Shown piece by piece: positions 13,609 through 48,017 of a stretch of 64,000 nt of DNA. A program made the translations under genes and the position numbers. Position 1 is the first letter of the stretch, and each line of letters begins with the position of its first letter. The stretch covers positions 336 through 64,335 of the forward strand of contig CAYYJX010000003.1 in NCBI GenBank assembly GCA_964471545.1, read 5' to 3'. The notes beneath the pieces are model-generated. The model did no database searches. It was given only the letters and a program-made list of their open reading frames with translations, and was not told where the DNA came from. The stretch comes from an uncultured Fimbriimonas sp. (GTDB lineage Bacteria; Armatimonadota; Fimbriimonadia; Fimbriimonadales; Fimbriimonadaceae).

Positions 13609-13619
13609 GAAAAAGCACT

Positions 13620-14048: not shown

Positions 14049-14070
14049 TTTGGCCGGCGCATAGAGTTCC

Positions 14071-19249: not shown

Positions 19250-19269
19250 TTGAACCTAGCAGCAAGAAA

Positions 19270-20022
19270 ATGGCAGAGAAGAACGCACCTAAGAAGAATT
19301 CATCCCTGATCCCGATCCTTATCGGAGCAGTGGTCGTTGGCGCTGTTGGGCTCAAGTTGACCGAGCCGGAAGCTGCGCCTCCGCGCAAGCGCGCGCTGAC
19401 CCCAAAGACGTCGACCGCCAAGAAGTCGAAAGACAACTTTATTGAAGAGGACTACAAGGCAAAGTTTGAAGTGATTTCGGCTCCGATCAAGAACAGCTTT
19501 GTCCCGGAAGTCGCAAAGGCTTCCCTTAAGAACGCCTTTACCGCCGATGTGCCCAACGGCATTCCCGCAGCGTTTGCAGGCGGAGAGACGACTTGGCTTT
19601 ACACGGGACACGCGGAAATCGACGGACGACGAGTCGCCCTACTTGAGAACACCGCTACGGGAGCAACCGAGTTCTTGCGACTGAATCAAAAGTGGCGAAG
19701 CCTAACCGTAACCGACATCGGCGAAGAGTCGATCACGGTTGAAAGCCGAGGAACCTCTAAGGTGATTTCCCTTCCGACCACGGCAAGCTACGCCGGGACT
19801 GGTCAGCTCTCTCCGCTTCCGGTCGTCGTGCCGAACGGTGGACGAGCCCTTCGAGGCCCGATCGCAGGTGGTCCGGCGATGGATCAAGGCATGAGCGCAC
19901 CCGCTCCGGCCCGATCTCAGCCCGCAAACACTTTCGCTGAAACCACTCCAACTGACGGACAATTTATGATGGACCCGAACGCCCAAGGCGGAAATCGGGG
20001 ACGACGAGGACGACGAGGTTAA
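19270..20022 (+). CDS. GspC/PilP-position membrane-anchored protein
   Basis: Single TM, beta-rich middle, located just before the secretin. Confidence 0.5.
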   Translation: MAEKNAPKKNSSLIPILIGAVVVGAVGLKLTEPEAAPPRKRALTPKTSTAKKSKDNFIEEDYKAKFEVISAPIKNSFVPEVAKASLKNAFTADVPNGIPAAFAGGETTWLYTGHAEIDGRRVALLENTATGATEFLRLNQKWRSLTVTDIGEESITVESRGTSKVISLPTTASYAGTGQLSPLPVVVPNGGRALRGPIAGGPAMDQGMSAPAPARSQPANTFAETTPTDGQFMMDPNAQGGNRGRRGRRG

Positions 20023-20025
20023 TCC

Positions 20026-31449: not shown

Positions 31450-31474
31450 CCGTTCCGAGAGCGAAGGCAAAAAC

Positions 31475-31516
31475 AAACAAAGACCCCCAACCGATTCCGG
31501 TTGGGGGTCTTTGTTT
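31475..31516. terminator. Bidirectional terminator
   Basis: AAACAAAGACCCCCAACCG-ATTC-CGGTTGGGGGTCTTTGTTT between convergent genes. Confidence 0.85.
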
Positions 31517-31522
31517 TCTGGG

Positions 31523-31708
31523 TCAGTTGACGTCGCGAGAGTCGCCGGGAGCCTTTGCACCCGGGGGTGCATCTTGCGCCTTGGGCGCCGGAGTGTTCAA
31601 CTCCACCTTCCCATCGTCACCGCCACCGGAGCATCCTGCAACAACCCCACCTGCCAACACAGCAAGCGCAAGCGCCAGGAACCGGGCGTTCTTACAAACC
31701 AGGGACAT
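31523..31708 (-). CDS. Small lipoprotein partner of prepilin cassette 1 (61 aa)
   Basis: [30 protein letters not shown]: lipobox VAGC and a Pro/Lys-rich tail; overlaps the prepilin stop. Confidence 0.7.
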
Positions 31709-32639
31709 CGACGCCTCCGTCAAAGTAGGTCGGGATCTCGAACGTCGCTTGAACGTTGATGTCCGGTCGGAACATGTACGGGTAGCAGCTTTGGCTATCC
31801 CAGTATCGGCCGGCGGCAAAGTTGTCCACGTATCGAGCGAACGGATCGGTTCGAGCGTCGGTTCGCTGGGCAACGTTTCGAGGACCGACACCGATTCGGC
31901 GGAACTTCGTCGAGGTGTCAGCCATGGCGATCACGGTGCCTTGAGCGAAGACCGAGATGCCGCGTCGGCTGGTGTTGGTGGTGTAACCACCCGTTTGACC
32001 GTTCACTGCGCCCGAGCATCCTGCGCGGGTGCCTTGGTATCGGCAGCTGACGACGTTTTGGCTACAAACCAACCAGGGGCTGGCATAGCCTGCGCCGTAG
32101 ATGGAGCGTCGACCATGGCCGTGCCAGTACACGGGCACCGTCGAGGGGCTCTCCATAGCGGTGCCGCTGTACTCGTTCAGAAGACCGTTAATGGTGTAGG
32201 TGACGTTTGCCAATCCAACAGGCTGACCCAAAGAGCCGAAGTAGCCACCCGTGGTGCGAAGTTCGGTACCGGATGGGCACGTGAGAATCTGGATGTTCTT
32301 CACGTACGGCTGGATCGAGTTGTACCAAAACGACTGGACGCCTGCGACTCGCCATGCCGGGTCGGTCACGGGCACTTGCTGAGCAGGCACAGGGATGAAT
32401 CGGTTCCAGTTGTATCCACCGAGCGGATCGCCAAAGACGTGTGCAAGCGGATACACGTCATCGGTGTCTGCCATGTAGATCTGGGTGGCGGTTCCAAGGT
32501 TTTTGAGGTTGGAAATCGATTGGGTCTTCTTGGCTGCATCCTTCGCTTGGGCAAATACCGGGAAAAGGATGGCGGCCAAGATCGCGATGATCGCGATCAC
32601 GACAAGGAGTTCGATGAGAGTAAACGCACGTCGTAACAT
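31692..32639 (-). CDS. Prepilin-type N-terminal cleavage/methylation protein (DUF1559-like) 1
   Basis: [31 protein letters not shown]...SNLKNLG; C-terminal AMADTSTKF. Confidence 0.9.
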
Positions 32640-32863
32640 GGTCGTCCAAAACATCCGGCCTTGCCGGAATTGCATCAAAGATACGAAAGCAAAAGGGGGT
32701 TTCGGAGGGGGTCTAGGCGGTCGTTAAGCAAAGGATGTTAACGAACCCCGTTCGTTTAGCATTTCCTCTCAATAAAAATCTCGTTACGCTTGCAAAAAAC
32801 TTCCCGTATCATTAACAGATCGTTAGGAGTTTTAGCAAAACGACTCAACGAATTGAAGTTGAA

Positions 32864-33856
32864 ATGAAACCAAGACGCGCATTCACGCTCATCGAGTTGC
32901 TGGTCGTTATTGCCATCATCGCGATCCTCGCCGCCATTCTCTTCCCTGTCTTCGCCCAAGCAAAGACTGCGGCAAAAAAGACCTCCGCTCTTTCGAATAT
33001 CAAACAGACGGCCACCTCGATCGCTATTTACAGTGCCGATCAGGACGACAATCTACCGTCCGCCTACGCTTTCGATCAAAACGGAACAATGTTGATGGGT
33101 CCGACCGGTCCCGATCCGTATCACCTCGCCTCGGTTCCCGCCGGTTGGGGCGTCAACGCACCGTGGGCATCGGCAGATGCGGTGCACTGGGTGAACAGCA
33201 CGTTTCCGTACATGAAGAACTACGATCTTCATAACAACGCGTTCACGACTCTCTACACGTCTGGCTTCAACTACGCGACCGCCCCGGCGAATCTCCCGGT
33301 GATCAGCCACTCGATGAACGGGCTGTTGAGCAACTACAGCGGCACTGCGATCACGGCTCCGTCTCGAACCCCACTCATCGTCATGGGCAATGGGCGCGAG
33401 GCCTACCGAGGTTATGCATACACCAACCCAATCATGAGGTGCGACGCTCAAGGTGCCGTAGGCGCTCCAGCGGCTCCTTGTCGGTTCAACCCTGGCGGCG
33501 TTCCCCAGGCCGGAATGACTCGAGCCCTTTCCTTGAGAATGGACACCTACGAGTTCACGTTCAATGCCGGTCTTGATACGACTTGGGTAACGGGTGACGG
33601 TTGGATCGTTGGCTTCGCGGATACGTCGGCGAAGTTTGTCAAACAGCCTCAGCAAGGAACGAACACCGGCAACTACTCCCAGCCCGGCTACATCTACACC
33701 CTCGGACGAAACGGAAATACCACCGGCGGATACCTCGACACTCCCTTGCGATGTCGATTTGGAACCGGAGCGTTCTATCAAAGCTACTTCCGACCAGACG
33801 TAGACGCGAACTACGCTTTCGGCTCGACGGGAATGGCCGTTCAGTGCGGGCAATAA
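32864..33856 (+). CDS. Prepilin-type N-terminal cleavage/methylation protein (DUF1559-like) 2
   Basis: [31 protein letters not shown]...SNIKQ; C-terminal GFADTSAKF. Confidence 0.9.
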
Positions 33857-33861
33857 CGACC

Positions 33862-34044
33862 ATGCGAGAACTGAAAACCCTCTTGATCCTGGTTGGTCTT
33901 TGCTTTGCAGGCGCTCTGTTGGCGGGATGCGGAAGCGATACGCCTCCGCCGAACGCGGCAGGACCGGAAGCAAACACAAACAAGGAATACACGAAAGAAG
34001 ACGCAGCGGCGGCAAAGCCGAAGCGAAACGGTAGCGGCGAGTAA
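33862..34044 (+). CDS. Small lipoprotein partner of prepilin cassette 2 (60 aa)
   Basis: [25 protein letters not shown]: lipobox LAGC; ATG 5 nt after the prepilin stop. Confidence 0.72.
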
Positions 34045-34059
34045 TTCGCCCGTTCTCCG

Positions 34060-34094
34060 AAGCCTCCCGATTTCGATGATCGGGGGGCTTTTTT
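34060..34094 (+). terminator. Rho-independent terminator of cassette 2
   Basis: AAGCCTCCCGAT-TTCGATG-ATCGGGGGGCTT plus TTTT. Confidence 0.8.
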
Positions 34095-34144
34095 GTTCGT
34101 GCCCCGGAATCGTCTCTACTCACCCGGTAGACTGCTTTTTTAGA

Positions 34145-35824
<1,680 letters not shown>

Positions 35825-35839
35825 CGGAAGGAGGCCTTT

Positions 35840-36937
35840 TTGAGCAACCCTGCGCTGGATCGAAGTGAGGTCCGAGCCGACTACCATCGGCTCCTCCTTG
35901 CTTGGTTCGATAAGCATCAGCGCGATCTTCCCTGGCGCAAAACGAAGGATCCCTACGCCATTTGGGTGAGCGAGATCATGCTTCAGCAAACTCAGGTCGC
36001 AACCGTGATTCCCTACTATGAACGGTGGCTTGCCGCCTTCCCCACCGTTTCCGACCTTGCTCATGCCGATGAGCAACACGTGCTCGCCCTCTGGCAGGGT
36101 CTCGGCTACTATCGACGAGCAAAACTGCTGCATGCTGGAGCGAAACAAGTCGCGGAAACGGGCATTCCCGCCGATGCCCCCGGGTGGCGAGGAGTACCGG
36201 GAGTGGGTCGGTATACTGCCGGGGCGATCACCTCGATCGCGTTGAATCTACAGGAGCCGTTGGTAGACGGCAACGTGGAACGCGTTTACGCCCGCCTCAC
36301 CGGAGACGGGTCACCTGCCAAGGAACTCACCGCCGCCGCTTGGAAATGGGCGGGGAAACTGGTTCCCTCCGATCGTCCTGGAGATTGGAATCAGGCACTC
36401 ATGGAGCTTGGCGCAACCGTTTGCAAGCCCGACCGCGCCGACTGCGATCGATGTCCACTCGTTTCTAAATGTGTCGCGCATGCTCGAAACGAAACGACAC
36501 GATTCCCGACACCCAAGCCCAAGGCGAAGACGGTGAAATTGGAACACGAGTTTTGGGTTGTTCGCCGGTGGGAGGCCGGAGCCGCACGGTACGCCATCGA
36601 ACAGATCGGACCCGATACCTATCAAAGCGACTCTAGCGAAGAAAAAGGACGCTGGTGGGAAGGTATGTGGCAGTTCCTGCGGGTCGGTCCCGAGGGTGCT
36701 CCGGAAAGACTTTTGCCTTTCAAGGACGAGCTTTGGCCCGTTGCCTTAGGTTCGTTTACCCACGCGGTGACTCACCATCGGATCACCGTGAGCGCCATGC
36801 TGGTAGACCTCCCGGATGCTTTCGCCCTCGAACCTCTCGCTTCTGTCCGCTGGATTTCCCCAGCGGAGATCGATGGGGTCGCGCTCCCGGCGCCCCAGCG
36901 AAAGATCCTTTCTCTGCTCGACCGCTCCCGTTCGTAG
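35840..36937 (+). CDS. mutY: A/G-specific adenine glycosylase
   Basis: RDLPWR, WVSEIMLQQTQV, WQGLGYY, GVGRYTA, VDGNVERV, NQALMELGA, CKPDRADCDRCPLVSKC Fe-S motif. Confidence 0.95.
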   Translation: MSNPALDRSEVRADYHRLLLAWFDKHQRDLPWRKTKDPYAIWVSEIMLQQTQVATVIPYYERWLAAFPTVSDLAHADEQHVLALWQGLGYYRRAKLLHAGAKQVAETGIPADAPGWRGVPGVGRYTAGAITSIALNLQEPLVDGNVERVYARLTGDGSPAKELTAAAWKWAGKLVPSDRPGDWNQALMELGATVCKPDRADCDRCPLVSKCVAHARNETTRFPTPKPKAKTVKLEHEFWVVRRWEAGAARYAIEQIGPDTYQSDSSEEKGRWWEGMWQFLRVGPEGAPERLLPFKDELWPVALGSFTHAVTHHRITVSAMLVDLPDAFALEPLASVRWISPAEIDGVALPAPQRKILSLLDRSRS

Positions 36938-36971
36938 GTCCTCTTCGGCACATCAGCCAAAATAAGAGGTC

Positions 36972-38234
36972 ATGAAATTTCAAGCTCCACGAGGCACCGA
37001 GGACATCCTGCCCTCTCAGTCCGCCATTTGGCAGACGCTGGAGCATCATTTTCAGACCCTGGTCGAAAAGTTTGGCTACGCCGAGATTCGCACCCCTGCC
37101 TTTGAAGACTCCGACCTTTTCCGCCGAACGGCGGGTGAAGCCAGCGACATCGTCACCAAGGAGATGTACGACTTCAAGGATAAGGGGGATCGAAACGTCA
37201 CTTTGAAGCCAGAAGGAACGGCTCCGGCAATGCGTGCCGTGATCCAATACGCACTTTGCCCTCCAGGCAACCACCTGCGCCTTTGGTATCTCACCCCGTT
37301 CTTCCGATACGGCCGACCCGCACGGGGTCGATGGCGACAAGCCCACCAGCTCGGCTGCGAACTGCTCGGCTCCAGCAACGCCCAAGCCGATGCGGAAGTC
37401 TTGGAGATTGCCATGACGTTCATGGCGCAAATCGGCCTGGGCGACGAGCCCGTGATGATCAATTCGATCGGTCGTGAAGAGTGTCGCGCCAAATATCGAG
37501 AGGTTGTTCTCGAACACATGGCGTCCTACCTTGCCGACCAAGAGGCAGACGCACGCGCGCTTGCGGAGAAGAACCCGCTCGGACTGCTGGACAGCAAAGA
37601 CCCCAAAGCGAAGGAAGCCTTGGTGGGCCTCGCTCCGATCACCGACTTTCTGGAAGACGACTCCAAAGCGCGATTCGAGAGCCTGCAAGAGCTGCTCACC
37701 GAAGCTGAGGTTCCTTACAAGGTGGCTCCGTACGTGGTGCGTGGTTTGGACTATTACACCGAAACGGTGTTCGAGTTCGAATCCAAACATCTGGAAGGGC
37801 TCAGCCTGTTTGGTGGCGGTCGGTACGACAATCTTGTGAAGGAAATCGGCGGCCCGGCGACTCCATGCGTAGGATTCGGGATCGGCGTTGAGCGCGTCAT
37901 CCTAGCGTTGGAAGCATTGAACAAGCTCCCGAAAACCAAGGGTCCGGACGTGTTCGTGGTGGCAGCCACCGGCGATGCGGGCGACTACTGCCGGAAGTTG
38001 GTTCGAGACCTTCGCGCCCAAGGTTTTCGAGTGGATTGGGACGTCGACAACCGCAGTTTCAAATCTCAGCTAAGGCAAGCGGATAAAAGCACCGCGCCGT
38101 TTGCCGTTCTTGTCGGCACCGAGGAGATCGAAACCGAAACACTGAAGGTGCGTCATCTGAATAAAGGTGAGCAGCGCGAGATTCCGCAACACGAATTGAG
38201 CGCAGTTTTGCGCACGTGGGATTCTGCAGAGTAG
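36972..38234 (+). CDS. hisS: Histidine--tRNA ligase
   Basis: PRGTEDILP, KEMY, LKPEGTA, RGLDYY, GGGRYD, GFGIGVER, C-terminal anticodon-binding domain. Confidence 0.9.
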   Translation: MKFQAPRGTEDILPSQSAIWQTLEHHFQTLVEKFGYAEIRTPAFEDSDLFRRTAGEASDIVTKEMYDFKDKGDRNVTLKPEGTAPAMRAVIQYALCPPGNHLRLWYLTPFFRYGRPARGRWRQAHQLGCELLGSSNAQADAEVLEIAMTFMAQIGLGDEPVMINSIGREECRAKYREVVLEHMASYLADQEADARALAEKNPLGLLDSKDPKAKEALVGLAPITDFLEDDSKARFESLQELLTEAEVPYKVAPYVVRGLDYYTETVFEFESKHLEGLSLFGGGRYDNLVKEIGGPATPCVGFGIGVERVILALEALNKLPKTKGPDVFVVAATGDAGDYCRKLVRDLRAQGFRVDWDVDNRSFKSQLRQADKSTAPFAVLVGTEEIETETLKVRHLNKGEQREIPQHELSAVLRTWDSAE

Positions 38235-38236
38235 AG

Positions 38237-39118
38237 ATGACGAAGGTCGCCTTAGGAACCGTGTTGGCATTGGGCCTTGGCACCTTGAGTGCCGCGCAAA
38301 GCGCGGATGTCCAGTTCAAAGGCGACCTCACCCTCTCTTTTCTCTCTCAGGCGAAGACTTCTCCGAACGTGGTTTCCTACCACCCGCTCGGACGTTACTC
38401 GCTGTTTGGGCTCAAGATTCTTACCGAGCCTGGGTTCACCGCAACGCTCACGCAGCGCGTTCAGCGCTTTGAGAACGACGCGGATCCGGATAGCTTCGAC
38501 GAAGCCTACATTGAAGACGAGGGGATCTGGAGGATCGGTAAACAGTACCTACCGTTCGGCGCAAAGACTCTTTTTCGTGAAACCGCTCTGGCCATTCGGG
38601 GCGATAACGACTTGCTGCTGGAAGGGATTCCCATTGCCGTTGCTTTCGTTGGAAATGGAACCGATCGACAAAGTGGAGTGGTCGGGCGCCTGGGTCGCCC
38701 CGAGTTCGGGTTTAGCGTCGCCATCGGTCGCCACTTTGGCATCAACGGAACGGCCCTAACGCCTATTCGCCGGGTCTCGGACTCTCCAGGTAGAGGACGT
38801 GGCTGGAGAGAGGCGTACGCGTTGGACGGGCGATGGAGAGCGGGCAATTTCGGCGGCAGGTTTGAAGGGCTCGTCCTTCGCAGGCCGGAATCGGACCTTG
38901 ACGATGAACTCAGTATCATCGACCTTCAATCCGACTTCGACCTGGATCGTAAGGCGACGGTGAGCCTGGGATTCACAAGAGTTTTTGAATCAACGGACTT
39001 CATCACCCGAGTCTCGTTTCTTTACCGACTGTCTCGCGGCTTTACCTTGGAAGGAATGGTCCGGGAGAACGATGGTAGGTTCGTGGATCTCTCCTTCGGG
39101 ATTCGAGTGAAGTTCTAA
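38237..39118 (+). CDS. Predicted outer-membrane beta-barrel protein
   Basis: Signal peptide, alternating amphipathic strands, C-terminal GIRVKF ending in Phe. Confidence 0.6.
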   Translation: MTKVALGTVLALGLGTLSAAQSADVQFKGDLTLSFLSQAKTSPNVVSYHPLGRYSLFGLKILTEPGFTATLTQRVQRFENDADPDSFDEAYIEDEGIWRIGKQYLPFGAKTLFRETALAIRGDNDLLLEGIPIAVAFVGNGTDRQSGVVGRLGRPEFGFSVAIGRHFGINGTALTPIRRVSDSPGRGRGWREAYALDGRWRAGNFGGRFEGLVLRRPESDLDDELSIIDLQSDFDLDRKATVSLGFTRVFESTDFITRVSFLYRLSRGFTLEGMVRENDGRFVDLSFGIRVKF

Positions 39119-39170
39119 ACGCACTCGCTCGTAAGAACGTACAATTCAGTCAGCCCGGGATGCCTAAACG

Positions 39171-39806
39171 ATGATCTCTTTTGCCCTTCTGTTGATCGTG
39201 GTGATATTGGTCGCCCTAGGAATCGCGTTCTTTGCTACGACAGGAATCCTGAGCCGGACGAGCAAGAAGGGTCAGACCCCTCTCTCATCGGATGGCTTGA
39301 GTGTCGATTCGGTCGCGCTGTTCCGCCCTATCCAGCGTCTGGGACGCGAGATTGAAGAGGTTGTCAGCTCAGACGGCTCTCTTGCCGCAGTCCGATCCAT
39401 GGCACAAACGGAGGTGCGTCGCATTGAAGAGCAGGTGTTGAAAGCGCTCAACAACCGAGATCATCTCCGGTCCAGTATTCGAGATCAAGCTTCCGCAGAA
39501 GCGGACATGGAGCGACTGGAGAAACTTCTGCAAGGCGATCTTTCGCCGTCTGAACGGTCCTCTTACGAGAGCGCACTCGCGGCACGAAAGACGGAGGTCC
39601 AACACTATCACAAAGCCCGTGAAGCGATGGGATCCATTGAGGACTCCGTTCGCCACGCCCAGGCGGCACTTTCCGAACTGAAGGCCAAACTCACCGCGGC
39701 CAAGTTGGAGCCCGCTACAGGCGCGGCGGATAACGATCTGCGAGAAACGTTGGGGCAGCTTCAATCGTTCTCGGTGACCGTTGACGAGGTTAAGAACCTC
39801 CTCTGA
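39171..39806 (+). CDS. Membrane-anchored coiled-coil hypothetical protein
   Basis: N-terminal TM helix followed by long helical heptad-like segments. Confidence 0.65.
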   Translation: MISFALLLIVVILVALGIAFFATTGILSRTSKKGQTPLSSDGLSVDSVALFRPIQRLGREIEEVVSSDGSLAAVRSMAQTEVRRIEEQVLKALNNRDHLRSSIRDQASAEADMERLEKLLQGDLSPSERSSYESALAARKTEVQHYHKAREAMGSIEDSVRHAQAALSELKAKLTAAKLEPATGAADNDLRETLGQLQSFSVTVDEVKNLL

Positions 39807-39847
39807 TCTTGTCCACCTGCCTTCTTGAGGGATACTGAGAGAATCCA

Positions 39848-40282
39848 ATGAGTGAAGTAAAGCGAGCAATCAACTACGGACGAGCCATGGTCGGTCATTT
39901 CAAACAGGAATGGGACCGGATCTCCGCCGTCGATGCGATTGACGCCGAGCGGGAGCTGAATGAGGCCCTAGAGGGTCCGGTTGCGACTAAAACTCCCACC
40001 GCAACCCCGGCAACCCCTGCCCCTTCCCAGCCCGATGCTCAACTACCGCCTATCGACCAGGCACGCAAAATTTTGGGCGTCACCGCGGAGACGGGCTTCT
40101 CTGAAACGAAAAAGATTTACGAGCGCATTCTTAAGCGCGCCGATCCAACTCGGTTTCCAGAGGGATCGTTGGAAGCGGCTCAAGCGGCAACCTTGCGGCG
40201 TCGCGTGGAGTGGGCCTATCACGTCATCGCGGAATCCGTCGATGCAACCGAGCGACGTTTCGGATCGCTCGAAATCGACTAA
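39848..40282 (+). CDS. J-domain-like protein lacking HPD
   Basis: ARKILGV...TKKIYERILKRADPTRF...RRVEWAYHVI aligns with the J-domain helices. Confidence 0.6.
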   Translation: MSEVKRAINYGRAMVGHFKQEWDRISAVDAIDAERELNEALEGPVATKTPTATPATPAPSQPDAQLPPIDQARKILGVTAETGFSETKKIYERILKRADPTRFPEGSLEAAQAATLRRRVEWAYHVIAESVDATERRFGSLEID

Positions 40283-40331
40283 AAGCCCGCGGACGGGTGC
40301 AGGTTTTCCCTACCCGGCGTAGACTGATTCC

Positions 40332-41336
40332 ATGGAATTCCGCACGCTAGGACGGACGGGCATTCAGGTGTCCGTGAGCTGCATGGGCACCATGACCTAC
40401 GGCTGGGAACCTCAAGATTGGGGTTCGGAAGAGGAAGCCGCGATCAAAATCACCCATCGGGCACTCGATCTGGGGATCAACTTCTTCGATACCGCCGACG
40501 TGTACGCTCGGGGCGTTAGCGAGACCATTCTAGGGAAAGCCCTGAAAGGCATTCAACGGTCTTCGTACGTGCTGGCGACCAAAGCCCACGGCAAGATGCA
40601 CGATACCGACGTGAATGCTTGGGGCAATACCCGCAAGCACATCATGGAGGCGTGCGACGCTTCCCTTCAGCGCCTCGGGGTCGACTACATCGACTTGTAT
40701 CAAATTCATCGCCCACAACCGGAAGTAGGCATCGACGAGACCCTTCGCGCGCTGGAAGATCTGATTCGCGCGGGAAAGATTCATTACGCGGGTTGCTCCA
40801 CCTTCGCCGCGTGGCAAGTTTGTGAAGCCCACTACGTGGCTAAAGAGCTAGGAGCCCGTGGGTTTGTGACCGAGCAACCTCCGTACAACCTCTTGGATCG
40901 CCGGATTGAGCGAGAACTCCTTCCGTTTCTCAAGAGCTACAACTACGGCGTCATTCCTTGGTCGCCCCTTGCAGGAGGCATCCTCAGCGGAAAGTATTTG
41001 GACAGCGACGCAAAGGGTTCCCGATACGCTTCTAGCGACCCCATGGGCAGGTTGAAGAACGCTCCCGTTCCTAAGCTACGAAAGCTGAAAGCTCTTGCTG
41101 AGAAGAACGGAATGTCGATGGCGACCCTCTCCCTCGCTTGGGTTGCCAACCAACCGGGCATCACGTCACCGATCATCGGCGCACGCTCGGTCGAGCAACT
41201 GGAAGAATCGGTGAAGGCGACGATGGTGAAGCTGGAGCCACGAATCTTGAACAAGATCGACGAAATCTTCGAGCCGGGTTCGCACCATGTCGAATACTAC
41301 CGGGCAAACTTCGGTCCGAACGCTCGGCCCAACTAA
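40332..41336 (+). CDS. Aldo/keto reductase
   Basis: MGTMTYG, FFDTADVY, LATK, DYIDLYQIH, EQPPYNLL, WSPLAGG, PIIGA. Confidence 0.93.
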   Translation: MEFRTLGRTGIQVSVSCMGTMTYGWEPQDWGSEEEAAIKITHRALDLGINFFDTADVYARGVSETILGKALKGIQRSSYVLATKAHGKMHDTDVNAWGNTRKHIMEACDASLQRLGVDYIDLYQIHRPQPEVGIDETLRALEDLIRAGKIHYAGCSTFAAWQVCEAHYVAKELGARGFVTEQPPYNLLDRRIERELLPFLKSYNYGVIPWSPLAGGILSGKYLDSDAKGSRYASSDPMGRLKNAPVPKLRKLKALAEKNGMSMATLSLAWVANQPGITSPIIGARSVEQLEESVKATMVKLEPRILNKIDEIFEPGSHHVEYYRANFGPNARPN

Positions 41337-41361
41337 CCATGCGCCCAATCGCCCCGAGACG

Positions 41362-41388
41362 CCCCGAGTGAAATCACTCGGGGTTTTT
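41362..41388 (+). terminator. Rho-independent terminator
   Basis: CCCCGAGTGA-AA-TCACTCGGGG plus TTTTT. Confidence 0.8.
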
Positions 41389-41431
41389 CGTTGTATCTTC
41401 CCATCCCCAACCTCGGTAAAGTGAGAGCAGG

Positions 41432-42412
41432 ATGAACTATCGCAAGCTCGGAAAATCGAATCTGGAAGTTTCAGAAATCAGCTTTGGCTGCTGGACCATG
41501 GGTGGCCTGAACTGGGTCAATGGTGTTCCGAACGGCTGGGCGAATGTGGACGAAGATGAAGTGACCGAGGCGATCAAGATCGCCATCGATGCGGGCGTGA
41601 ATCACTTTGACAACGCGGACGTCTACGGAAACGGAAAGGCCGAGCAAATGCTCGCTCGAGTCTTTGACCGACTCGGGGTGAAATCCACCGACTACGTGGT
41701 TGCCACCAAAATTGGGCACTTCCCCGGCACGGCGGCTCACGCCTATGAGCCCGCTCACATTCGCCACCAGTGCGAGCAGTCGTTGATCAACCTCAAGCGC
41801 GATTACATCGACGTTTACTACTTCCACCACGGCAACTTCGGCCCGAACGACTTCTATCTGGACGATGCGGTCGAGGTGATGAACCGACTGGTCGAGGAAG
41901 GCAAAGTCCGAGTGAAGGGACAAAGCGCGTACAGCGCCGACGATTTTGAGCGTGTCGTGCCCAAGGTCGACCCGGCGGTTCTTCAGAGCTGGGGTCACGC
42001 CATGGACGATCAGTTCATGCGTCCAGGGTCTCGAGTCGCAAACCTCATGGAGGCTCGGGGAATGAGCTTCGTGGCGTTCAGCCCGCTTGCACAAGGGCTA
42101 CTTCTCGATAAGTACAACCCGGAGAACCCGCCTGCCTTCGAAGCAGGCGATAACCGACAAGGCAAAGCCGGATTCTCGGCAGAGTCGATTTCGAAGCTCA
42201 AGCCCAAGCTAGAGAAGCTCAAGGCTCGGTTTGGCGGAACCACCGAGGATCTTGCCGCCGTCGCTCTGAACTATGTGTTGGCCATGCCGAATGTTGCGTG
42301 CGCGATTCCGGGCTTCCGAAACCCGCGACAAGCCAAGTGCAACATCCAAGCAGCTGGCAGGTACCTGAGCGCAGAGGACGTAAAGTTCGTTCAAGAAGCC
42401 CTTCAAGGTTAA
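41432..42412 (+). CDS. Aldo/keto reductase
   Basis: HFDNADVYG, VATK, DYIDVYYFH, FSPLAQG, AIPG. Confidence 0.92.
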   Translation: MNYRKLGKSNLEVSEISFGCWTMGGLNWVNGVPNGWANVDEDEVTEAIKIAIDAGVNHFDNADVYGNGKAEQMLARVFDRLGVKSTDYVVATKIGHFPGTAAHAYEPAHIRHQCEQSLINLKRDYIDVYYFHHGNFGPNDFYLDDAVEVMNRLVEEGKVRVKGQSAYSADDFERVVPKVDPAVLQSWGHAMDDQFMRPGSRVANLMEARGMSFVAFSPLAQGLLLDKYNPENPPAFEAGDNRQGKAGFSAESISKLKPKLEKLKARFGGTTEDLAAVALNYVLAMPNVACAIPGFRNPRQAKCNIQAAGRYLSAEDVKFVQEALQG

Positions 42413-42421
42413 GCTCCGTTA

Positions 42422-42455
42422 AGGTCCTTTGGGCAATATTGTGCCCAAAGGACCT
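42422..42455. terminator. Hairpin after the second AKR gene
   Basis: AGGTCCTTTGGGCA-ATATTG-TGCCCAAAGGACCT, perfect 14-bp arms. Confidence 0.7.
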
Positions 42456-42518
42456 AGTTTTCAAATTGAAACTGTTTTGTGGAAACCACTCCTCAAGGCG
42501 TGAAGTAATACTCTCACG

Positions 42519-42968
42519 ATGAGTCGTGGAAAGGAATCCTTGTTCGGTGCGATTGCGCAGGTAAACGACGTGATCTCCACTCATGTCCGGTTGCGATTGG
42601 ACCTGATCGGCGTGAGTTCCGCGACCTTTGATCTCCTAAGCGCTATTCACGCCGCCGATGGTCGTGAGACCCAAGCACAGATCGGTCAGCGCCTTGGACT
42701 CAGCCGGGCAACCATCTCCGAGGCAATCACAGTTGCGGAGAAATCGGGCTACGTCGAGAGAGTGGCCTCCTCCACCGATCGCCGAGCAAACACGGTTCGA
42801 CTTTCGGCAGCAGGTCACCGCATCATTCAAGACGTCATGTCTGGGCTTTCCGAACTTGAAGAGGCCGTTGTCGCCAAGCTAAGGTCCAAAGAAGCCTCGA
42901 CTACAGTGGACAGCCTTCGTAAGCTCACCACCGAGATTGAGCGGTTTGCAGGCGCAGGAAAAAATTAA
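42519..42968 (+). CDS. MarR family transcriptional regulator
   Basis: ETQAQIGQRLGLSRATISEAI HTH; DRRANTVRLS wing. Confidence 0.88.
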   Translation: MSRGKESLFGAIAQVNDVISTHVRLRLDLIGVSSATFDLLSAIHAADGRETQAQIGQRLGLSRATISEAITVAEKSGYVERVASSTDRRANTVRLSAAGHRIIQDVMSGLSELEEAVVAKLRSKEASTTVDSLRKLTTEIERFAGAGKN

Positions 42969-43058
42969 TCGATAAAAATCTGCGCCTAATCGCGCAAATT
43001 CTGCGTCCCTACGATAACACCTAGTCCGTTAGACTAACGGCATGGTCGCCAAGGAAAG

Positions 43059-43469
43059 GTGAAGGGTGTGCTAAGGATAGTCGGAGTTCAAAAATCTTCC
43101 CAACCAAACCGAGAGTTTGTTCTGCTTCAGAACCACGGTCACCTTCGCGTGAACCTGCGCGGCTACGGGCTGATCGCCGAGTCTGCGATTGAAGGACATA
43201 CCCCTGCCGCCTTCCACATCTTCCAAGAGGAAGAGTCGATCCACGCGTCCACTTACGTGATGCTCATCAGCGGTTCAGGAGTTTCTCAGTGGGGCAGGTC
43301 CAAAGACGGCTCGCTGGTGTTCTACTGCTACATGAACCGTGCAGTCTCCGCTTGGAACGATTCTGAAGGGCCTATCTCCGTACTGGCGCCGCAACACCGG
43401 TACTGCCCTCGAGCGCAAGAATCCGCCCCCGCGACCTACGGCAACTCGTCGGTAGCGAAGGTCCTTTAG
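43059..43469 (+). CDS. Hypothetical protein, lamin-tail-domain-like
   Basis: EFVLLQNHG..RVNLRGY resembles the LTD E-x-V-x-L-x-N...L-x-G-(W/Y) pattern. Confidence 0.5.
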   Translation: MKGVLRIVGVQKSSQPNREFVLLQNHGHLRVNLRGYGLIAESAIEGHTPAAFHIFQEEESIHASTYVMLISGSGVSQWGRSKDGSLVFYCYMNRAVSAWNDSEGPISVLAPQHRYCPRAQESAPATYGNSSVAKVL

Positions 43470-44056
43470 ACGTTCACTTTGTTCAGGGCGGCTTCTAGTC
43501 CGTCCTGAACAAGAACCTCAATCCCATCCGCGCCCTTCCGGATCGCCTTTTCAATCTCGACCCGCTCTTCGGGCGTGAACTTCCCAAGAACGTGGTCGAT
43601 GGTCTCGTCGTCGCCCTTTCCAATGCCGATTTTGAGTCTCGGATACTCCTGGGTGCCTAACGAGTGAATGAGGCTTTTATGGCCGTTATGGCCTCCGGCG
43701 CCTCCCTTTGGCTTCAACCGCGTTCGCCCAACTTCTAGATCCAAATCGTCGGCGATCACAACAATCTTTTCTGGCTTCACTCCGTACGACTTGGCCAATG
43801 GAGCGACCGATTGCCCACTCAGGTTCATGTAGGTCATCGGCTTCACCAGGGCTACGCCGATGCCACCGATGGTGCCAACTCCGAACCTAGCCTTGTGCTG
43901 CGCGGTGCCTAGCTTGATGCCATGGCGATCGGCTAATTCGTCGATGAGATCGAAGCCGACGTTGTGTCTGGTCCGGGCGTACTCGGGACCGGGGTTGCCG
44001 AGGCCAACCACCAGCCATTCCACCTGCACGACGGGCTTACTTTGTCTGCGAAACAT
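43466..44056 (-). CDS. pth: Peptidyl-tRNA hydrolase
   Basis: VVGLGNPGPEYARTRHNVGF, TYMNLSG, DDLDL, GGHNGHKS, RLKIGIG. Confidence 0.96.
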   Translation of the reverse strand: MFRRQSKPVVQVEWLVVGLGNPGPEYARTRHNVGFDLIDELADRHGIKLGTAQHKARFGVGTIGGIGVALVKPMTYMNLSGQSVAPLAKSYGVKPEKIVVIADDLDLEVGRTRLKPKGGAGGHNGHKSLIHSLGTQEYPRLKIGIGKGDDETIDHVLGKFTPEERVEIEKAIRKGADGIEVLVQDGLEAALNKVNV

Positions 44057-44900
44057 TTGCCTCTTCGGGTGCGATGCCCGCGTTCGGATCGAGTTTGCCC
44101 GTTGCGCAGAGTGCGATGAGCACCACGCCGAGCAACACGCGATAGCCAATAAACACGCCGATGCCTCGTTGCTGAATGAATCCGAGCAACCACTTAATCG
44201 CGGCCCAACCAACCACAAAGCTCACGACCGTTGCGACCAGGATGGGCGTTTGGAGCGGGCCGGTGAGAAACTCTCGCTCCTTGACCGCTTCGTAAATCCC
44301 TGCCGCCGTGATGGAAGGAACCGACATGAGGAACGAGAAACGAGCCGCCGCTTTTCGATCGAATCCGGCGAAGTACGCGCCCGTAATGGTCGACCCGCTT
44401 CGGCTCATTCCCGGGATCAGAGCGATGCACTGCCAAAGCCCAACGATGAGACCGTCTTTGATCGTCACCGCTTCGATTTCTCGGGACTTCTTGCCGTACT
44501 TCTCAGCCACACCCATCAGAACACCCATGAAAATGAGCGAACCGGAGATGACATAGAGCGACCGGAAAACGGTCTCGATCTGCTTGTGAAGCAACAGGCC
44601 AACCACCACGATTGGAATCGTCGCAATAAAGACACCCCAACCAACCTTGGCGTCGTAGCTACTCACGTCCCGGGTTGAGAGAGACTTGCCCCACGCAAGG
44701 AAGGCTCTCCAGAGATCGCCCCCGAATACGACCAACATCGCCAAGACAGTACCGATCTGAATGATCGCGGTAAACGCGGCTCCCGGGTCTTCCCATCCGA
44801 GCAGAGCGGGCACGACACGCAAGTGAGCCGTGCTGCTGATCGGAAGAAATTCTGTGATGCCTTGAACGACGCCGTAAACGATGGCTTGAAGGATGGTCAT
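44037..44900 (-). CDS. uppP: Undecaprenyl-diphosphate phosphatase
   Basis: QGITEFLPISSTAHL, ALIPGMSRSGSTI, AARFSFLMSVP. Confidence 0.96.
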   Translation of the reverse strand: MTILQAIVYGVVQGITEFLPISSTAHLRVVPALLGWEDPGAAFTAIIQIGTVLAMLVVFGGDLWRAFLAWGKSLSTRDVSSYDAKVGWGVFIATIPIVVVGLLLHKQIETVFRSLYVISGSLIFMGVLMGVAEKYGKKSREIEAVTIKDGLIVGLWQCIALIPGMSRSGSTITGAYFAGFDRKAAARFSFLMSVPSITAAGIYEAVKEREFLTGPLQTPILVATVVSFVVGWAAIKWLLGFIQQRGIGVFIGYRVLLGVVLIALCATGKLDPNAGIAPEEANVSQTK

Positions 44901-44918
44901 GATGATTGAGAGGCAGGT

Positions 44919-46010
44919 CTATTGCCCGAAGACCTTGATGATCGCCAGACCAATCGCGCTCAGAGCGGCGGCGGCAATGTACAGAATCCAGACGGTTTGT
45001 CTTTGGGTGAACCCCTTCCCAAGGAGAGTGTGGTGAAGGTGTCGCTTATCCGGCGCAGTAATCGGCGAGCCACTCAGGATGCGTCGGCAGATCACCCAGA
45101 ACGCGTCCAGGATTGGAAGCGCGAACACGAGCATCGGCATGAAGATCGAAACCGCAGCGGCTGTTTTGACCTTACCAACCACCGAGAGCGAGGCCAAGAA
45201 GAATCCAAGGATGTAGGCACCGCCTGTCCCCATGAAGATCTTCGCAGGGTTGTAGTTGTGCCGAAGGAATCCGAGCGCGGCTCCACCTGTTGCGGCCGTG
45301 ATCAATGCCACTCTCGGCTGTCCCTCGTAGACCGCGATCATCGTCAACGTGATGGCGGCGATGGTAGCCACGCCCGCGCAGAGACCGTCGATGCCGTCGA
45401 TGGTATCCATCGTCTTCGTCACTACAAAGATGTAGATGGCAGTGATGATCACTGCGGCGATCGGCGGAAACACCACATAGTGCTGCCCATTTGTAAACGG
45501 CATGAGGAAGCCGGCAATCTGCACCCGAGCCTTCGTGTCCGTGTAAAAGAACTGAATGAGGACGCCCGCCCCCAGCAGGATGAGAAGTTGAACCTTCGCC
45601 GCGTATTGGTACAGATCGTCAAGCGCCCCCGCGACCACCAATAACCCGCCGACCACGAGCAGACCCCATACGTACGGCGGGAAGCCTTGTTGGGCAAACG
45701 GGAGGACCGCAAGAACCGCTATGACAATGCCGCCAAAAATCGCCAAGCCTCCCCAACGGGGAATCGGCTCGGAGTGGACGCGGCGATCGTCACGCTTGGG
45801 GTCATCGACGACTCCCTTTTCAATGGCGATTTTTCTAACGAGCGGCGTCAGGGTGTAACTGACCACCAGCGCGATCAGGCCGGCCAAAAGCGGATAACGA
45901 AAGCCTTTTAGAAGACCATCGGTGGCAGCGTAGGCAGACTCGAAGAGCCCGTACGCCCGGGATGGAATCGATGTCCAATCCATCCACTTCATAAATACCG
46001 CTAAATCCAT
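44919..46010 (-). CDS. Undecaprenyl-phosphate GlcNAc-1-P transferase (MraY/WecA/TagO family)
   Basis: HSEPIPRWGG, GALDD, DGIDGL, YNPAKIFMG, PDKRHLHH. Confidence 0.92.
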   Translation of the reverse strand: MDLAVFMKWMDWTSIPSRAYGLFESAYAATDGLLKGFRYPLLAGLIALVVSYTLTPLVRKIAIEKGVVDDPKRDDRRVHSEPIPRWGGLAIFGGIVIAVLAVLPFAQQGFPPYVWGLLVVGGLLVVAGALDDLYQYAAKVQLLILLGAGVLIQFFYTDTKARVQIAGFLMPFTNGQHYVVFPPIAAVIITAIYIFVVTKTMDTIDGIDGLCAGVATIAAITLTMIAVYEGQPRVALITAATGGAALGFLRHNYNPAKIFMGTGGAYILGFFLASLSVVGKVKTAAAVSIFMPMLVFALPILDAFWVICRRILSGSPITAPDKRHLHHTLLGKGFTQRQTVWILYIAAAALSAIGLAIIKVFGQ

Positions 46011-46039
46011 GGCTTCGATTTCCTGCCGCCGAGAGGTCC

Positions 46040-46549
46040 CTAAAGACCGAGATCCACCGGAATCAACTCGCCGTCAACGTAACGCATCACATCCATGTGC
46101 GCCTCTCTGAACAATTCTAGCGAAAATGGGTCCGGATAATCCCCTTCATAAATGACGCGCACGATGCCCGCATTGATGATCATTTTTGCGCAGGTGTTGC
46201 AAGGTTGGCACGTGACGTAGATCGTTGCCCCATCACAAGGCGTCCCAATCATCGCCGCTTGAAGCAGCGCGTTCTGCTCGGCATGGAGAGCACGGATGCA
46301 GTGCCCTGCCTTCAAACAGCCTTCCGGCCAATCCCGCTCGTGTCCGTGGTCTGGACAGTGAGAGATTCCGCGAGGGGCACCGTTGTAGCCCGTGGCGAGG
46401 ATCCTACGATCACGGACGAGCACCGCTCCAACCGACCGGCGAGGACACGTCGCACGGGTGGCAACCAGATGGGCGATCTGCATGAAATAGGCGTCCCACG
46501 AAGGGCGGTTATCGGAGACCGCAGGGCTCGTCGGCAGATCGATGGACAT
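46040..46549 (-). CDS. dCMP deaminase (ComEB family)
   Basis: RPSWDAYF, RATC, TGYNG, HAEQNA, PCNTC. Confidence 0.93.
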   Translation of the reverse strand: MSIDLPTSPAVSDNRPSWDAYFMQIAHLVATRATCPRRSVGAVLVRDRRILATGYNGAPRGISHCPDHGHERDWPEGCLKAGHCIRALHAEQNALLQAAMIGTPCDGATIYVTCQPCNTCAKMIINAGIVRVIYEGDYPDPFSLELFREAHMDVMRYVDGELIPVDLGL

Positions 46550-46623
46550 TACAAAAAATTATGAACTGCAAAAAAACCAGTCACCGAAACAAAAAGTTCT
46601 GCGTAGAATATCAATGTCGGCTT

Positions 46624-46637
46624 GCGAAACGTTTCGC
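46624..46637. promoter_or_regulatory. Perfect palindrome resembling a LacI-family operator
   Basis: GCGAAACGTTTCGC (14 bp, central AAACGTTT) in the divergent intergenic region. Confidence 0.55.
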
Positions 46638-46786
46638 GAACCGATTCTGATCGAAGGCGACCAGCTAAAAATGCGATTTTCCTGCATTTTCGCGCGAATA
46701 TCGATGTCTCAGAATCCGGAAGTTGCAATAAGACTTCCAGTTCTCAGCGGGTTGAGATCGCCAAGCCCAATGGAGGGCGACCTTCC

Positions 46787-47623
46787 ATGAAAAGAAATTC
46801 TGCGTTCACACTCATCGAACTTCTCGTAGTCATCGCGATCATCGCGATTTTGGCGGCGATTCTCTTCCCCGTCTTCGCTCAGGCCAAGGCCGCTGCAAAG
46901 CACGCAAAGACGGTTTCCAACGTCAAGCAACTCGGCACCACCTTTGCCCTTTACATGGCAGATTCGGACGACGTCTATCCTCGACGAACGACCGTCAACT
47001 GGAACGGCTGGGCGACCGGCGAGTGCAACGGCACGTTTGGCTGCGAGAGCTGGGACAAGTTGATTCTTCCGTACATGAAGAACGTCGACATCTTCGCGTC
47101 GGATATCGACCGATCGCCTTACGTTCCCTACTGGAACGGCAACATGCGCGGTCAAATCAAGCGCAGCTACGACGTCACTAAGTACCTCTTCCCCACCCAC
47201 GGCGGCATGGGTTGGATGCCGAACGGATCGTTCGCAATCGCGCCGATCAACGGCACGGCGGTTCCGGCTCCGGCAAGCACCATCATGATCACCGAGAAGC
47301 GAAACTGGGCGCAAACCTGTTCGCCTTGGTGGGAGTTCAGCTCCTACTGGGAGTGCTGGAACTGGGGCACCGGAACGGCTAACACCGAGTCCAATACCCC
47401 GGCCGATTACTACGCGGGTATCGACTACTCCAACGCGAACAAGGCCGCATTCACCTTTGCCGACGGCCACGTGACTTCGCGACCTCGCGGATTTCTCTTC
47501 CCGGGTCACGATCGACGCCTGACCGCGGGCGCACCGCTCAACTCGGCACCGGGTGCATCGTGCACCGATGCGGACGAGTGGAATGCCGCTGGAAACGTTC
47601 GCTGCGCGTTCCCTGAGTTCTAA
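46787..47623 (+). CDS. Prepilin-type N-terminal cleavage/methylation protein (DUF1559-like) 3
   Basis: [30 protein letters not shown]...SNVKQLG; C-terminal ANKAAFTFADGHV (H-X9-DG-type motif region). ATG 46787 follows GGAGG. Confidence 0.9.
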   Translation: MKRNSAFTLIELLVVIAIIAILAAILFPVFAQAKAAAKHAKTVSNVKQLGTTFALYMADSDDVYPRRTTVNWNGWATGECNGTFGCESWDKLILPYMKNVDIFASDIDRSPYVPYWNGNMRGQIKRSYDVTKYLFPTHGGMGWMPNGSFAIAPINGTAVPAPASTIMITEKRNWAQTCSPWWEFSSYWECWNWGTGTANTESNTPADYYAGIDYSNANKAAFTFADGHVTSRPRGFLFPGHDRRLTAGAPLNSAPGASCTDADEWNAAGNVRCAFPEF

Positions 47624-47680
47624 GGTCGCTCCCTTTGCCGCCCGGGATTTCCCCCGGGCGGTTTGTCCATTTAAGAGCCA

Positions 47681-47953
47681 ATGAAAAAACAACTGCCAAC
47701 TCCAGTCGTCGTGGGTGTCGCCGCTGTCGCGATCGCCATCGTGATCGGTCTATTCGTCAAGGGCACATCCGGACCACCTCCCATCCCTGCTCCGAAGCGT
47801 GCGCCGAACTACCAAGAGGGCATTCCCGACTATGTGAAGAACGCGGGCAAGCCGGGCAATAAGCCGGCTGGCGGCCCTCAGCCCGGAGAGATTCCAACGG
47901 GCGCGGGCGGTTCCACCCCTCCGGGCGCACCTGCCATGCCGAGCAATCCTTAA
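47681..47953 (+). CDS. Small Pro-rich membrane-anchored partner of cassette 3 (90 aa)
   Basis: One N-terminal TM (VVVGVAAVAIAIVIGLFV) then a Pro/Gly-rich tail. Confidence 0.72.
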   Translation: MKKQLPTPVVVGVAAVAIAIVIGLFVKGTSGPPPIPAPKRAPNYQEGIPDYVKNAGKPGNKPAGGPQPGEIPTGAGGSTPPGAPAMPSNP

Positions 47954-48017
47954 TCCACGACTTGAAAGCCGATGAGGGGTTGACCTCCATCGGCTCCATC
48001 CCTGAATCTAAAGACTA

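Follow-up and report, generated by a model that had tools for sequence, protein, structure and literature searches.

Large prepilins with a constant stalk are paired with small membrane-anchored partners in recurrent gene cassettes of Fimbriimonadales

Why are genes for large proteins with type IV prepilin N-termini followed, time and again, by a gene for a membrane-anchored product of fewer than a hundred residues? The question is raised by three such pairs in a 64,000-nucleotide stretch of DNA from an uncultured Fimbriimonas sp. (contig CAYYJX010000003.1; the whole stretch is called the window here, and positions refer to it unless another locus is named). An original prediction, made from the sequence, had singled out positions 31523-47953 as repeated prepilin and small-partner cassettes; the pairs are indeed found there, but pairs 2 and 3 are set apart by ~12.7 kb of genes unrelated to them. 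Pair 1, on the minus strand, consists of the large prepilin P1 (31692..32639; 315 aa, leader MLRRA before the Phe, a Cys-containing body and the motif MADTS) and the lipoprotein S1 (31523..31708; 61 aa, lipobox VAGC, a 35-aa low-complexity mature tail). Pair 2, on the plus strand, consists of the large prepilin P2 (32864..33856; 330 aa, leader MKPRRA, motif FADTS, conserved Cys pairs) and the lipoprotein S2 (33862..34044; 60 aa, lipobox LAGC in the context GALLAGC), which starts 5 nt past the P2 stop. Pair 3, also on the plus strand, consists of the shorter prepilin P3 (46787..47623; 278 aa, leader MKRNSA, a Trp/Cys-rich head and the motif FADGH) and the bitopic protein S3 (47681..47953; 90 aa), with an N-in transmembrane (TM) helix followed by a Pro/Gly-rich tail. 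Both the three near-invariant prepilin N-termini and the gene of 60-90 aa directly after each prepilin, for two lipoproteins (VAGC and LAGC) and one Pro-rich TM protein, are thus as predicted. We find that this module is real, conserved and under selection, and that it duplicates as a unit. Our preferred reading, held tentatively and at slightly less than even confidence, is that the bicistronic cassette, a constant-stalk prepilin plus its cognate membrane-anchored partner, acts as a ligand-binding system on a shared machine.

The pairing was counted in 79 related genome loci together with the window (1.41 Mb of Fimbriimonadales DNA), with an identical open reading frame (ORF) procedure for prepilins and controls; the best-matching related loci all come from metagenome-assembled genomes of Fimbriimonas or Fimbriimonadaceae. 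A partner was defined as an ORF of 35-150 aa with a hydrophobic N-terminus, lying -40 to +150 nt from the prepilin end, and under a stricter definition also carrying a lipobox; the controls were 784 genes of other kinds, each at least 200 aa long. By the first definition 75/103 large prepilins (73%) are followed by a partner as compared to 9.3% of the 784 controls (Fisher p 1e-43), and by the second 63/103 (61%) as compared to 9/784 (1.1%; Fisher p 1.2e-58), so the expected excess of small lipoproteins downstream of prepilins is there. In a wider pass a partner was found for 103/144 distinct prepilins (72%). The gap between prepilin and partner has a median of 2 nt, the two genes overlap in 31/67 pairs, and terminator-like sites follow 61/103 partners (59%) versus 35/200 control genes. 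On the strength of these pairing statistics, short gaps or overlaps and terminator-like sites, the cassette is a recurrent, self-contained bicistronic unit.

The idea that terminators or hairpins close each pair was borne out for pairs 1 and 2, which end in strong intrinsic terminators (31475..31516, minus strand, a 19-bp stem with a T-run, -35.3 kcal/mol; and 34059..34091, plus strand, -25.4 kcal/mol), but pair 3 has after S3 only a hairpin with no T-run (47967..47995, plus strand, -19 kcal/mol), which probably does not terminate transcription. A second, GC-rich hairpin with a 10-bp stem and a weak T-run lies between P3 and S3 (47637..47662, plus strand, -26 kcal/mol) and is possibly an attenuator; comparable hairpins occur in 7/15 pairs with a gap of at least 25 nt.

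Are the small ORFs genes at all? They are short and of low complexity, S1-S3 gave no matches in Pfam or NCBIfam, and in some public contigs gene callers missed them, all of which could be taken to mean that they are non-functional, either chance ORFs or remnants of a larger ancestral partner. Set against this is, first, the enrichment over controls (p 1e-58), and second, the way the individual genes are built. S1 shares its first 17 nt, ATG included, with the end of P1, a GGAGG Shine-Dalgarno sequence lies 5 nt upstream of this start, and both S1 and S2 show the charged n-region, hydrophobic h-region and lipobox of lipoproteins, from which acylation is predicted. Lipobox and anchor are conserved while substitutions are biased to the third codon position: between S1 and its orthologue in locus L083 there are 11/5/32 differences at codon positions 1/2/3, and 23 of the codon changes are synonymous and 15 non-synonymous. 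Among the S2 orthologues of L080-L085 and L001, the stretches C-x-DTPPPN, K-x-Y-T-K-E-D-A and P-x-R-x-G-x-G are retained where the accompanying P2 orthologues share just 55-73% identity with the P2 of the window. Similarly, S3 carries P-A/G-K-K/R-x-P-x-Y-Q-E-G-I-P-D-Y-V-K-N-A adjoining its helix, and the S3 orthologues (L166, L168, L169 and L170) retain P-A/G-K-K-L-P-G-Y-Q-E-G-I-P-D-Y-V-K-N-A where the P3 orthologues are 61-63% identical to the window P3. The anchor-proximal motifs of the partners are in this way DTPPPN / KEYTKEDA and PGYQEGIPDYVKNA. We regard the non-functional explanation as essentially refuted, and the sequence evidence argues that the small ORFs are real genes.

Assembled metatranscriptome contigs, for which DNA carry-over is possible, cross the P1/S1 junction (X12, 31657-31831) and the P2/S2 junction (X17, 33579-33913, 0 differences). 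For cassette 3 no RNA was found, the contigs matching only the conserved N-terminal stretch and a neighboring glycoside hydrolase (GH) gene. Independent gene callers had found most of the small genes in the public contigs, the S1 orthologue in L080 among them, and missed some. Orthologues of S1/S2 are intact but unannotated at L082 2270-2552 and at L083 1520-1790 and 3957-4239; across whole genomes such micro-lipoprotein genes are probably under-annotated. A homologue search with S3 returned 2 proteins only, and the partners therefore appear to change too quickly to be found by searches at the family level.

Once mature, the lipoprotein partners are 20-63 residues long (median 47) and consist of A 14%, G 13%, P 12%, E 9% and S 9%, with aromatics at only 1%; apart from short motifs they are predicted to be disordered tails. 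A relaxed lipobox pattern is matched by 93/103 partners in the relatives, and ~5/103 are bitopic TM proteins like S3, the prepilins that go with them being 236-307 aa long, mostly 236-272 aa. A pilotin identity of the GspS or PilF/Tgl type was considered and rejected, the partners having no folded domain and occurring once per prepilin, not once per secretin. The penultimate partner residue is Gly in 41/95 non-redundant tails (background 13.7%, p 2.5e-12), with no enrichment at the positions neighboring it; at the final position K, R, N, E and P predominate, and the commonest endings are GK, GN, GG and GR. We know of no system that recognizes a C-terminal G-x.

Within orthologous groups the conserved motifs of the partners lie within ~35 residues of the membrane anchor, and the distal part is indel-prone. 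Similarity of the partner tail follows similarity of the prepilin body (Spearman 0.25, permutation maximum 0.14), and mean tail similarity reaches 0.31 at a body similarity of 0.5-0.8 against a background of 0.11-0.12. Because tail similarity tracks body similarity in this manner, we read the cassette as duplicating as a unit, with a tail that appears to diverge faster than the body. This co-inheritance and the subfamily-specific motifs speak for the cognate partners of the original prediction, and its interchangeable pilin-like modules find a counterpart both in the self-contained, recurrent cassettes and in the way the prepilins themselves are built, namely as a constant stalk with a variable head.

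The constancy of the stalk is most evident at the mature N-terminus, where the 28 residues that follow the short basic leader are identical in P1, P2 and P3. All three pass PF07963 (N_methyl; 29.6-36.6 bits, cutoff 21.2) and TIGR02532 (29-31.6 bits, cutoff 16.3) and display the hallmarks of type IV pilins: a basic leader, a small residue at -1, Phe+1, Glu+5 and ~20 hydrophobic residues. Among 146 distinct prepilins from many genomes most of these 28 positions are invariant, and each agrees with the consensus in at least 139/146. Synonymous codons vary freely across the stretch, which indicates selection at the protein level and rules out gene conversion as the source of the invariant N-terminus. 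Matches of the prepilin profile in the PDB are limited to the alpha1 helix of type IV pilus (T4P) pilins and GspG. Beyond alpha1, the stalk carries the proximal motif N-x-K-Q-x-G...Y-x-x-D-x-D-D-x-x-P...W...P-Y-x-K-N. The bodies of P1 and P2 are paralogous (33% identity, E 4e-24), and P3 has in common with P2 the stalk and the proximal ~87 residues only; for these reasons the architecture is that of a constant stalk (alpha1 plus proximal motifs) bearing a variable, disulfide-containing head. In an AlphaFold2 (AF2) model of P2 (pLDDT 94.5) alpha1 spans residues 9-59 and the head is mostly beta/coil, and the P2 model found no fold match in the PDB; the AF2 model of P3 is unreliable (pLDDT 38, from a 17-sequence alignment).

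An ADGH/ADTS motif had been placed at the C-terminus of the prepilins. The motif is present, as MADTS, FADTS and FADGH, but not in that position: as D-[GT]-[SH] it lies 50-80 residues ahead of the C-terminus. D253, S255 and A256 are near-invariant in 101 relatives. P1 orthologues occupy the same place in L080, L082 and L083, and P3 has 14 relatives at 61-95% identity. Antisense to P1 runs a longer ORF of 454 aa (31272-32636, plus strand), which misled a longest-ORF gene map and is almost certainly no real gene but a product of GC-rich sequence.

How might such a pair work? As we picture it, prepilin and partner would both be placed in the inner membrane on its periplasmic side, in amounts of ~1:1 because of their translational coupling. 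A prepilin peptidase would cut the leader, to judge from its motif; no prepilin peptidase gene was identified within the window. The anchor-proximal motif of the partner would then bind its own membrane-embedded pilin and, specifically for that paralogue, the partner would act in holding, maturation or gating; translational coupling, the subfamily-specific motifs close to the anchor and the TM-type partners are what lead us to this step. Since alpha1N is invariant and has Glu5, ~100 paralogues per genome could use one type IV filament machine, which might be the type II secretion system (T2SS) of the window or a T4P system elsewhere, and which would present the head on a short fibre or at its tip. 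The heads would be ligand-binding modules, at least a subset of which may serve glycan use, as genomic context suggests. The label "surface system" used in the original prediction is premature; partners of the TM type can only be located in the inner membrane, and this, with the membrane-proximal motifs, points to action on the membrane-embedded pilin and away from the cell surface.

A candidate for the shared assembly machine is encoded in the window itself, by a T2SS-type operon on the plus strand (10780..22506) that is separate from the cassettes and ~9 kb away from them, in which Pfam matches identify GspE, GspF, GspG, two further pseudopilins, GspK, PilN-like and PilO-like proteins and a secretin. 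The alpha1 helix of this GspG has a 10-residue stretch in common with the cassette prepilins. P1-P3 were considered as GspG-K pseudopilins and rejected: the GspG equivalog model scores them at 32-35 bits, over alpha1 only, against a cutoff of 88.85, and they are encoded elsewhere than in the gsp operon. In place of the expected GspL/M the operon has the PilN-like and PilO-like genes together with a 250-aa protein (17145-19249 and 19270-20022), and its GspK carries an HHH motif.

Several observations weigh against the ligand-binding reading, and we set them out together. The link between gsp operon and cassettes is their co-occurrence in one 64 kb window only. The residue at -1 is Ala in 134/146 large prepilins and Gly in 12/146, although Gly is canonical; the codons concerned are at 32625-32627 (P1), 32879-32881 (P2) and 46802-46804 (P3), and in GspG and GspH, also encoded in the window, this residue is Gly. 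Ala at -1 may mean slower or separate processing. The head appears from the model to have no detectable structural relative, and its fold would give no readout of a binding function. The tails are fast-evolving and of low complexity, so that the tail-similarity signal may be partly compositional. There is no small partner for 28% of the prepilins (41/144); ~9 of these 41 are followed by a tandem prepilin and ~10 by larger secreted proteins or lipoproteins. Finally, most cassettes, pairs 1 and 2 among them, are not beside carbohydrate genes.

The surroundings of pairs 1 and 2 bear on a different explanation. Together they form a divergent pair, with an A/T-rich intergenic region of presumed promoters (32640..32863), between carA (29977-31074), which is followed by a conserved 115-aa ORF (31102-31449; also in L080, L083 and L085), and the N-terminal half of carB (34146-35824; CPSase_L_D1-D3 in the L083 orthologue), a gene that we take to be split because this half is only ~559 aa long. 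A secreted protein of 895 aa that contains Gly-rich repeats and matches HEAT weakly at its C-terminus is encoded ahead of carA (27250-29937, plus strand), as it is in L080 and L085. The carA-cassettes-carB arrangement is common to L080 and L083; L082 has the divergent P1/P2 pair as well, with a large gene behind it, in L085 only P2-S2 lies between carA and carB, and the P2 orthologues of L081 and L084 lie in unrelated surroundings, which makes three different genomic contexts overall. The P1/P2-type family comprises 4,488 clusters at 50% identity (E<=1e-30). Cassettes that relocate between genomes and join a constant stalk to highly divergent heads might be a surface-variation repertoire, that is, interchangeable heads on one fibre for adhesion or for evasion of phages or predators, in which the partners have no ligand role. 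Each paralogue, however, has its own promoter region and terminator, unlike silent cassettes that feed one expression site; its orthologues are 55-90% identical across genera, which is the mark of purifying, not diversifying selection; and the linkage of some cassettes to LacI and GH genes, described below, points to nutrient-responsive use. We therefore consider a variation repertoire very improbable. A k-mer search found no shared upstream promoter or regulatory motif, only A/T-richness.

The surroundings of cassette 3 are of another kind. Downstream of S3 lies a gene for a GH2 TIM-barrel-like glycosidase with a signal peptide (48018..49277, plus strand; Pfam Glyco_hydro_2_C 29.1 bits, cutoff 21), and the trio P3-S3-GH2-like is conserved in L166 (where the enzyme is 57% identical), L167 and L170. 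In L166, L167 and L168 the distance from the end of a LacI-family gene to the prepilin start is 2-3 nt (L166 1977-3837 and L168 41-1905, for instance), and in L069, L071, L073, L052 and L067 it is a few nucleotides. LacI-family ORFs directly 5' of a prepilin account for 9/14 of those in the Fimbriimonadales loci; since these loci are centred on prepilins, the LacI and GH proportions are biased, and the start-stop abutment is not accounted for by this bias. The genes that follow LacI-led cassettes encode GH5 (L073), GH44 (L069), GH2-like (L166) and xylose-isomerase-like (L071) proteins, and a GH30 gene is near the LacI-led cassette of L168. Within the window no LacI gene was found: P3-S3 is followed by the GH2_C-like gene without a LacI gene, and pairs 1 and 2 have neither. 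A subset of cassettes thus appears to be in sugar-regulated operons with glycoside hydrolases, and the suggestion of glycan capture has context on its side for cassette 3 and its LacI-led relatives, but not for the majority of cassettes, which lie away from carbohydrate genes.

The same loci could be read in terms of cargo. The prepilins might be private T2SS adaptors, each a cargo-specific subunit of the pseudopilus tip by which one exoprotein, for instance the adjacent glycosidase, would be loaded onto the T2SS piston, and which its small partner would hold until the cargo arrives. The conserved P3-S3-GH2-like trio would fit, as would operons of the form LacI-prepilin-GH5 and LacI-prepilin-lipoprotein-GH44, the complete T2SS operon in the window and those partner-less prepilins that precede larger secreted proteins. 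Most cassettes, however, stand alone, are closed by a terminator and lack a cargo gene, pairs 1 and 2 being situated between carA and carB, and ~100 adaptors per genome far exceed the adjacent cargo. We judge the adaptor explanation quite improbable.

To which family do these prepilins belong? They had been called DUF1559-like, and this can be kept in the sense of probable homology over the proximal part of the body but not as membership by Pfam threshold. PF07596 (DUF1559, SBP_bac_10) scores P1 at 21.4 and P3 at 18.3 bits against a cutoff of 23.3, over the N-terminal part of the model only, and does not match P2; it is carried by a few relatives (P0055, P0079, P0126 and P0132). For TIGR04294 (H-X9-DG) there was no NCBIfam match at E<=0.01 for P1-P3. 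No His is seen on visual inspection, DT stands in place of DG in P1 and P2, and P3 keeps FADGH; some prepilin relatives carry the H-X9-DG name from JGI. When the bodies without alpha1 of 146 Fimbriimonadales and 72 planctomycete proteins were compared by hhalign, they aligned at 97.2% and E 3.8e-11 over the first ~58 columns only, the rest remaining unaligned. Again on visual inspection, D-[GT]-[SH] in the window proteins corresponds to the D-G-S-V-x-F of the planctomycete ones. Taken together these comparisons suggest that the window prepilins are remote relatives in the DUF1559 superfamily, not members by curated thresholds.

The planctomycete DUF1559 proteins were collected as 80 loci in a metagenome scan, the query being a consensus that real sequences matched at up to 94% identity. 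They have, like the window proteins, a prepilin leader with an FTL[IV]ELLVVIAII alpha1, and the proximal motif N-L-K-Q-I-G...Y-H-D...F-P...W...L-P-Y is common to both. Their alpha1, however, continues as LLPAVQAAREAARR, whereas the continuation of 13 residues in the window proteins differs, and their -1 residue is Gly whereas that of the window proteins is Ala. They too have a lipoprotein downstream: 20/41 planctomycete-type DUF1559 genes (49%) are followed by one of 120-190 aa versus 9/178 controls (5%, p 9e-11). These partners give sub-threshold matches to CarboxypepD_reg, DUF6795, Big_1 and DUF4198, consistent with a small beta-sandwich; they share ...GC...V-x-V-S-G-x-V-T-x-D-G-K-P... (L086-L165) and may be a separate, uncurated family. 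A CarboxypepD_reg-like lipoprotein of 120-190 aa differs from the ~47-residue disordered lipopeptide on the Fimbriimonadales side. Because a lipoprotein follows the planctomycete DUF1559 genes as well, the arrangement of a large prepilin with a downstream lipoprotein is found in two phyla, and in the Fimbriimonadales the partner is reduced to a lipopeptide.

DUF1559 is the largest paralogue group of Planctopirus limnophila, with 68 genes of which two are essential and whose function is unknown (PMC10632474). Tuwongella immobilis has 91 proteins with both N_methyl and SBP_bac_10 domains, of which 25 were detected by mass spectrometry, and proteins with both domains were found mostly in the detergent-soluble (Triton X-100, SDS) fractions (PMC8567305). 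Such fractionation with membranes would also be expected if the prepilin signal were merely a cleavable inner-membrane anchor, the proteins being never-polymerised binding proteins, periplasmic or pseudo-periplasmic, that work with ordinary transporters for uptake and have the partner as co-anchor or co-receptor. The Pfam name SBP_bac_10 agrees with this, as does a paper on R. baltica, which treats DUF1559 as a solute-binding family (PMC2754498); so do the membrane-proximal partner motif, S3 as an inner-membrane protein, and the 2 of 6 ABC-ATPase-like ORFs in the loci that lie within 500 nt of a prepilin, although these are too few for inference. Yet the 28-residue alpha1N with Glu5 is kept in nearly all 146 paralogues, which is more than an anchor needs and is typical of subunits of a filament core or platform; ABC adjacency is rare; and the P2 model has no match to the periplasmic-binding-protein fold. 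We think the anchor explanation rather unlikely, and retain display by a type IV filament machine as the preferred reading.

Some known systems resemble parts of this arrangement. In the modular type IV pilins PilB and PilC of Streptococcus sanguinis a canonical stalk carries an extra adhesive or lectin-type module, and the protein is a minor subunit of the T4P machine; these, however, are few genes inside the pil operon, with no dedicated small partner and no hundred-fold paralogy. In Geobacter the pilin gene for PilA-N is followed by one for a second exported polypeptide, PilA-C, that associates with the pilin, and PilA-N geopilin is among the PDB entries the best sequence match to the alpha1 of the window prepilins (E 7e-14). 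There the first gene supplies a helix only and the second the globular head, whereas here the first gene has the large head and the second gives a short lipid-anchored peptide.

For the partners the closest likeness is to LptM/YifL and the Rz1 o-spanin, in which a Pro/Ala-rich lipoprotein of ~40-50 mature residues binds a specific larger envelope protein; in the spanins the Rz i-spanin is anchored N-terminally in the inner membrane, and the Rz1 and Rz genes overlap or abut. There is no sequence relationship to these proteins, and their context is phage or LPS, whereas here there is one partner per paralogue, ~100 per genome, and some partners are TM proteins and not in the outer membrane. For the heads, the bindosome of Sulfolobus consists of sugar-binding nutrient-capture proteins with class III (pilin-type) signal peptides, and SusC/SusD of the Bacteroidetes are paralogous two-gene receptor pairs in sugar-regulated loci with glycoside hydrolases. 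Both differ from the window system, which has no ABC or TonB-dependent transporter partner and no fold similarity to them, and only a minority of cassettes are in such loci.

The expansion of the family has been described before. The genome of Fimbriimonas ginsengisoli, of the same lineage, has 79 "PulG" (COG2165) genes, 65 of them with N_methyl, evidently the same gene family as the window prepilins, along with genes for T4P (PilB, C, D, M, Q, T) as well as T2SS; its genome paper reads the PulG-like genes as pseudopilins for fimbriae or attachment and makes no mention of large heads that vary, of an invariant 28-mer or of small partner genes (PMC4072686). In the literature searched we found no account of a conserved cognate partner, of the micro-lipoprotein form or of the LacI/GH linkage, the only hint being one sentence (PMC8567305). 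What is new here is the partner gene as a conserved cognate, not the expansion, which is already published.

We speculate further, while considering it unlikely as it stands, that the prepilin-lipoprotein pair is the unit of a phylum-spanning system of nutrient capture by type IV filaments in Armatimonadota, Planctomycetes and probably other lineages that have these prepilins. In the form that such capture might take, which is a similarly doubtful proposition, ~100 receptor heads per genome, exchangeable for one another, would all use a single invariant stalk and a single machine, and every head would be licensed by its own membrane-anchored partner. If true, this nutrient-capture system would be a functional counterpart of SusC/SusD and a candidate explanation of polymer uptake. 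The prepilin superfamily is in any case among the largest paralogous families of Planctomycetes and Fimbriimonadia, with 68-91 genes per genome in the papers cited. Dozens of real genes of 40-90 aa per genome are missed part of the time by automated annotation, and the co-inherited membrane-anchored partner, together with the LacI/GH subset, turns a "DUF" into testable hypotheses.

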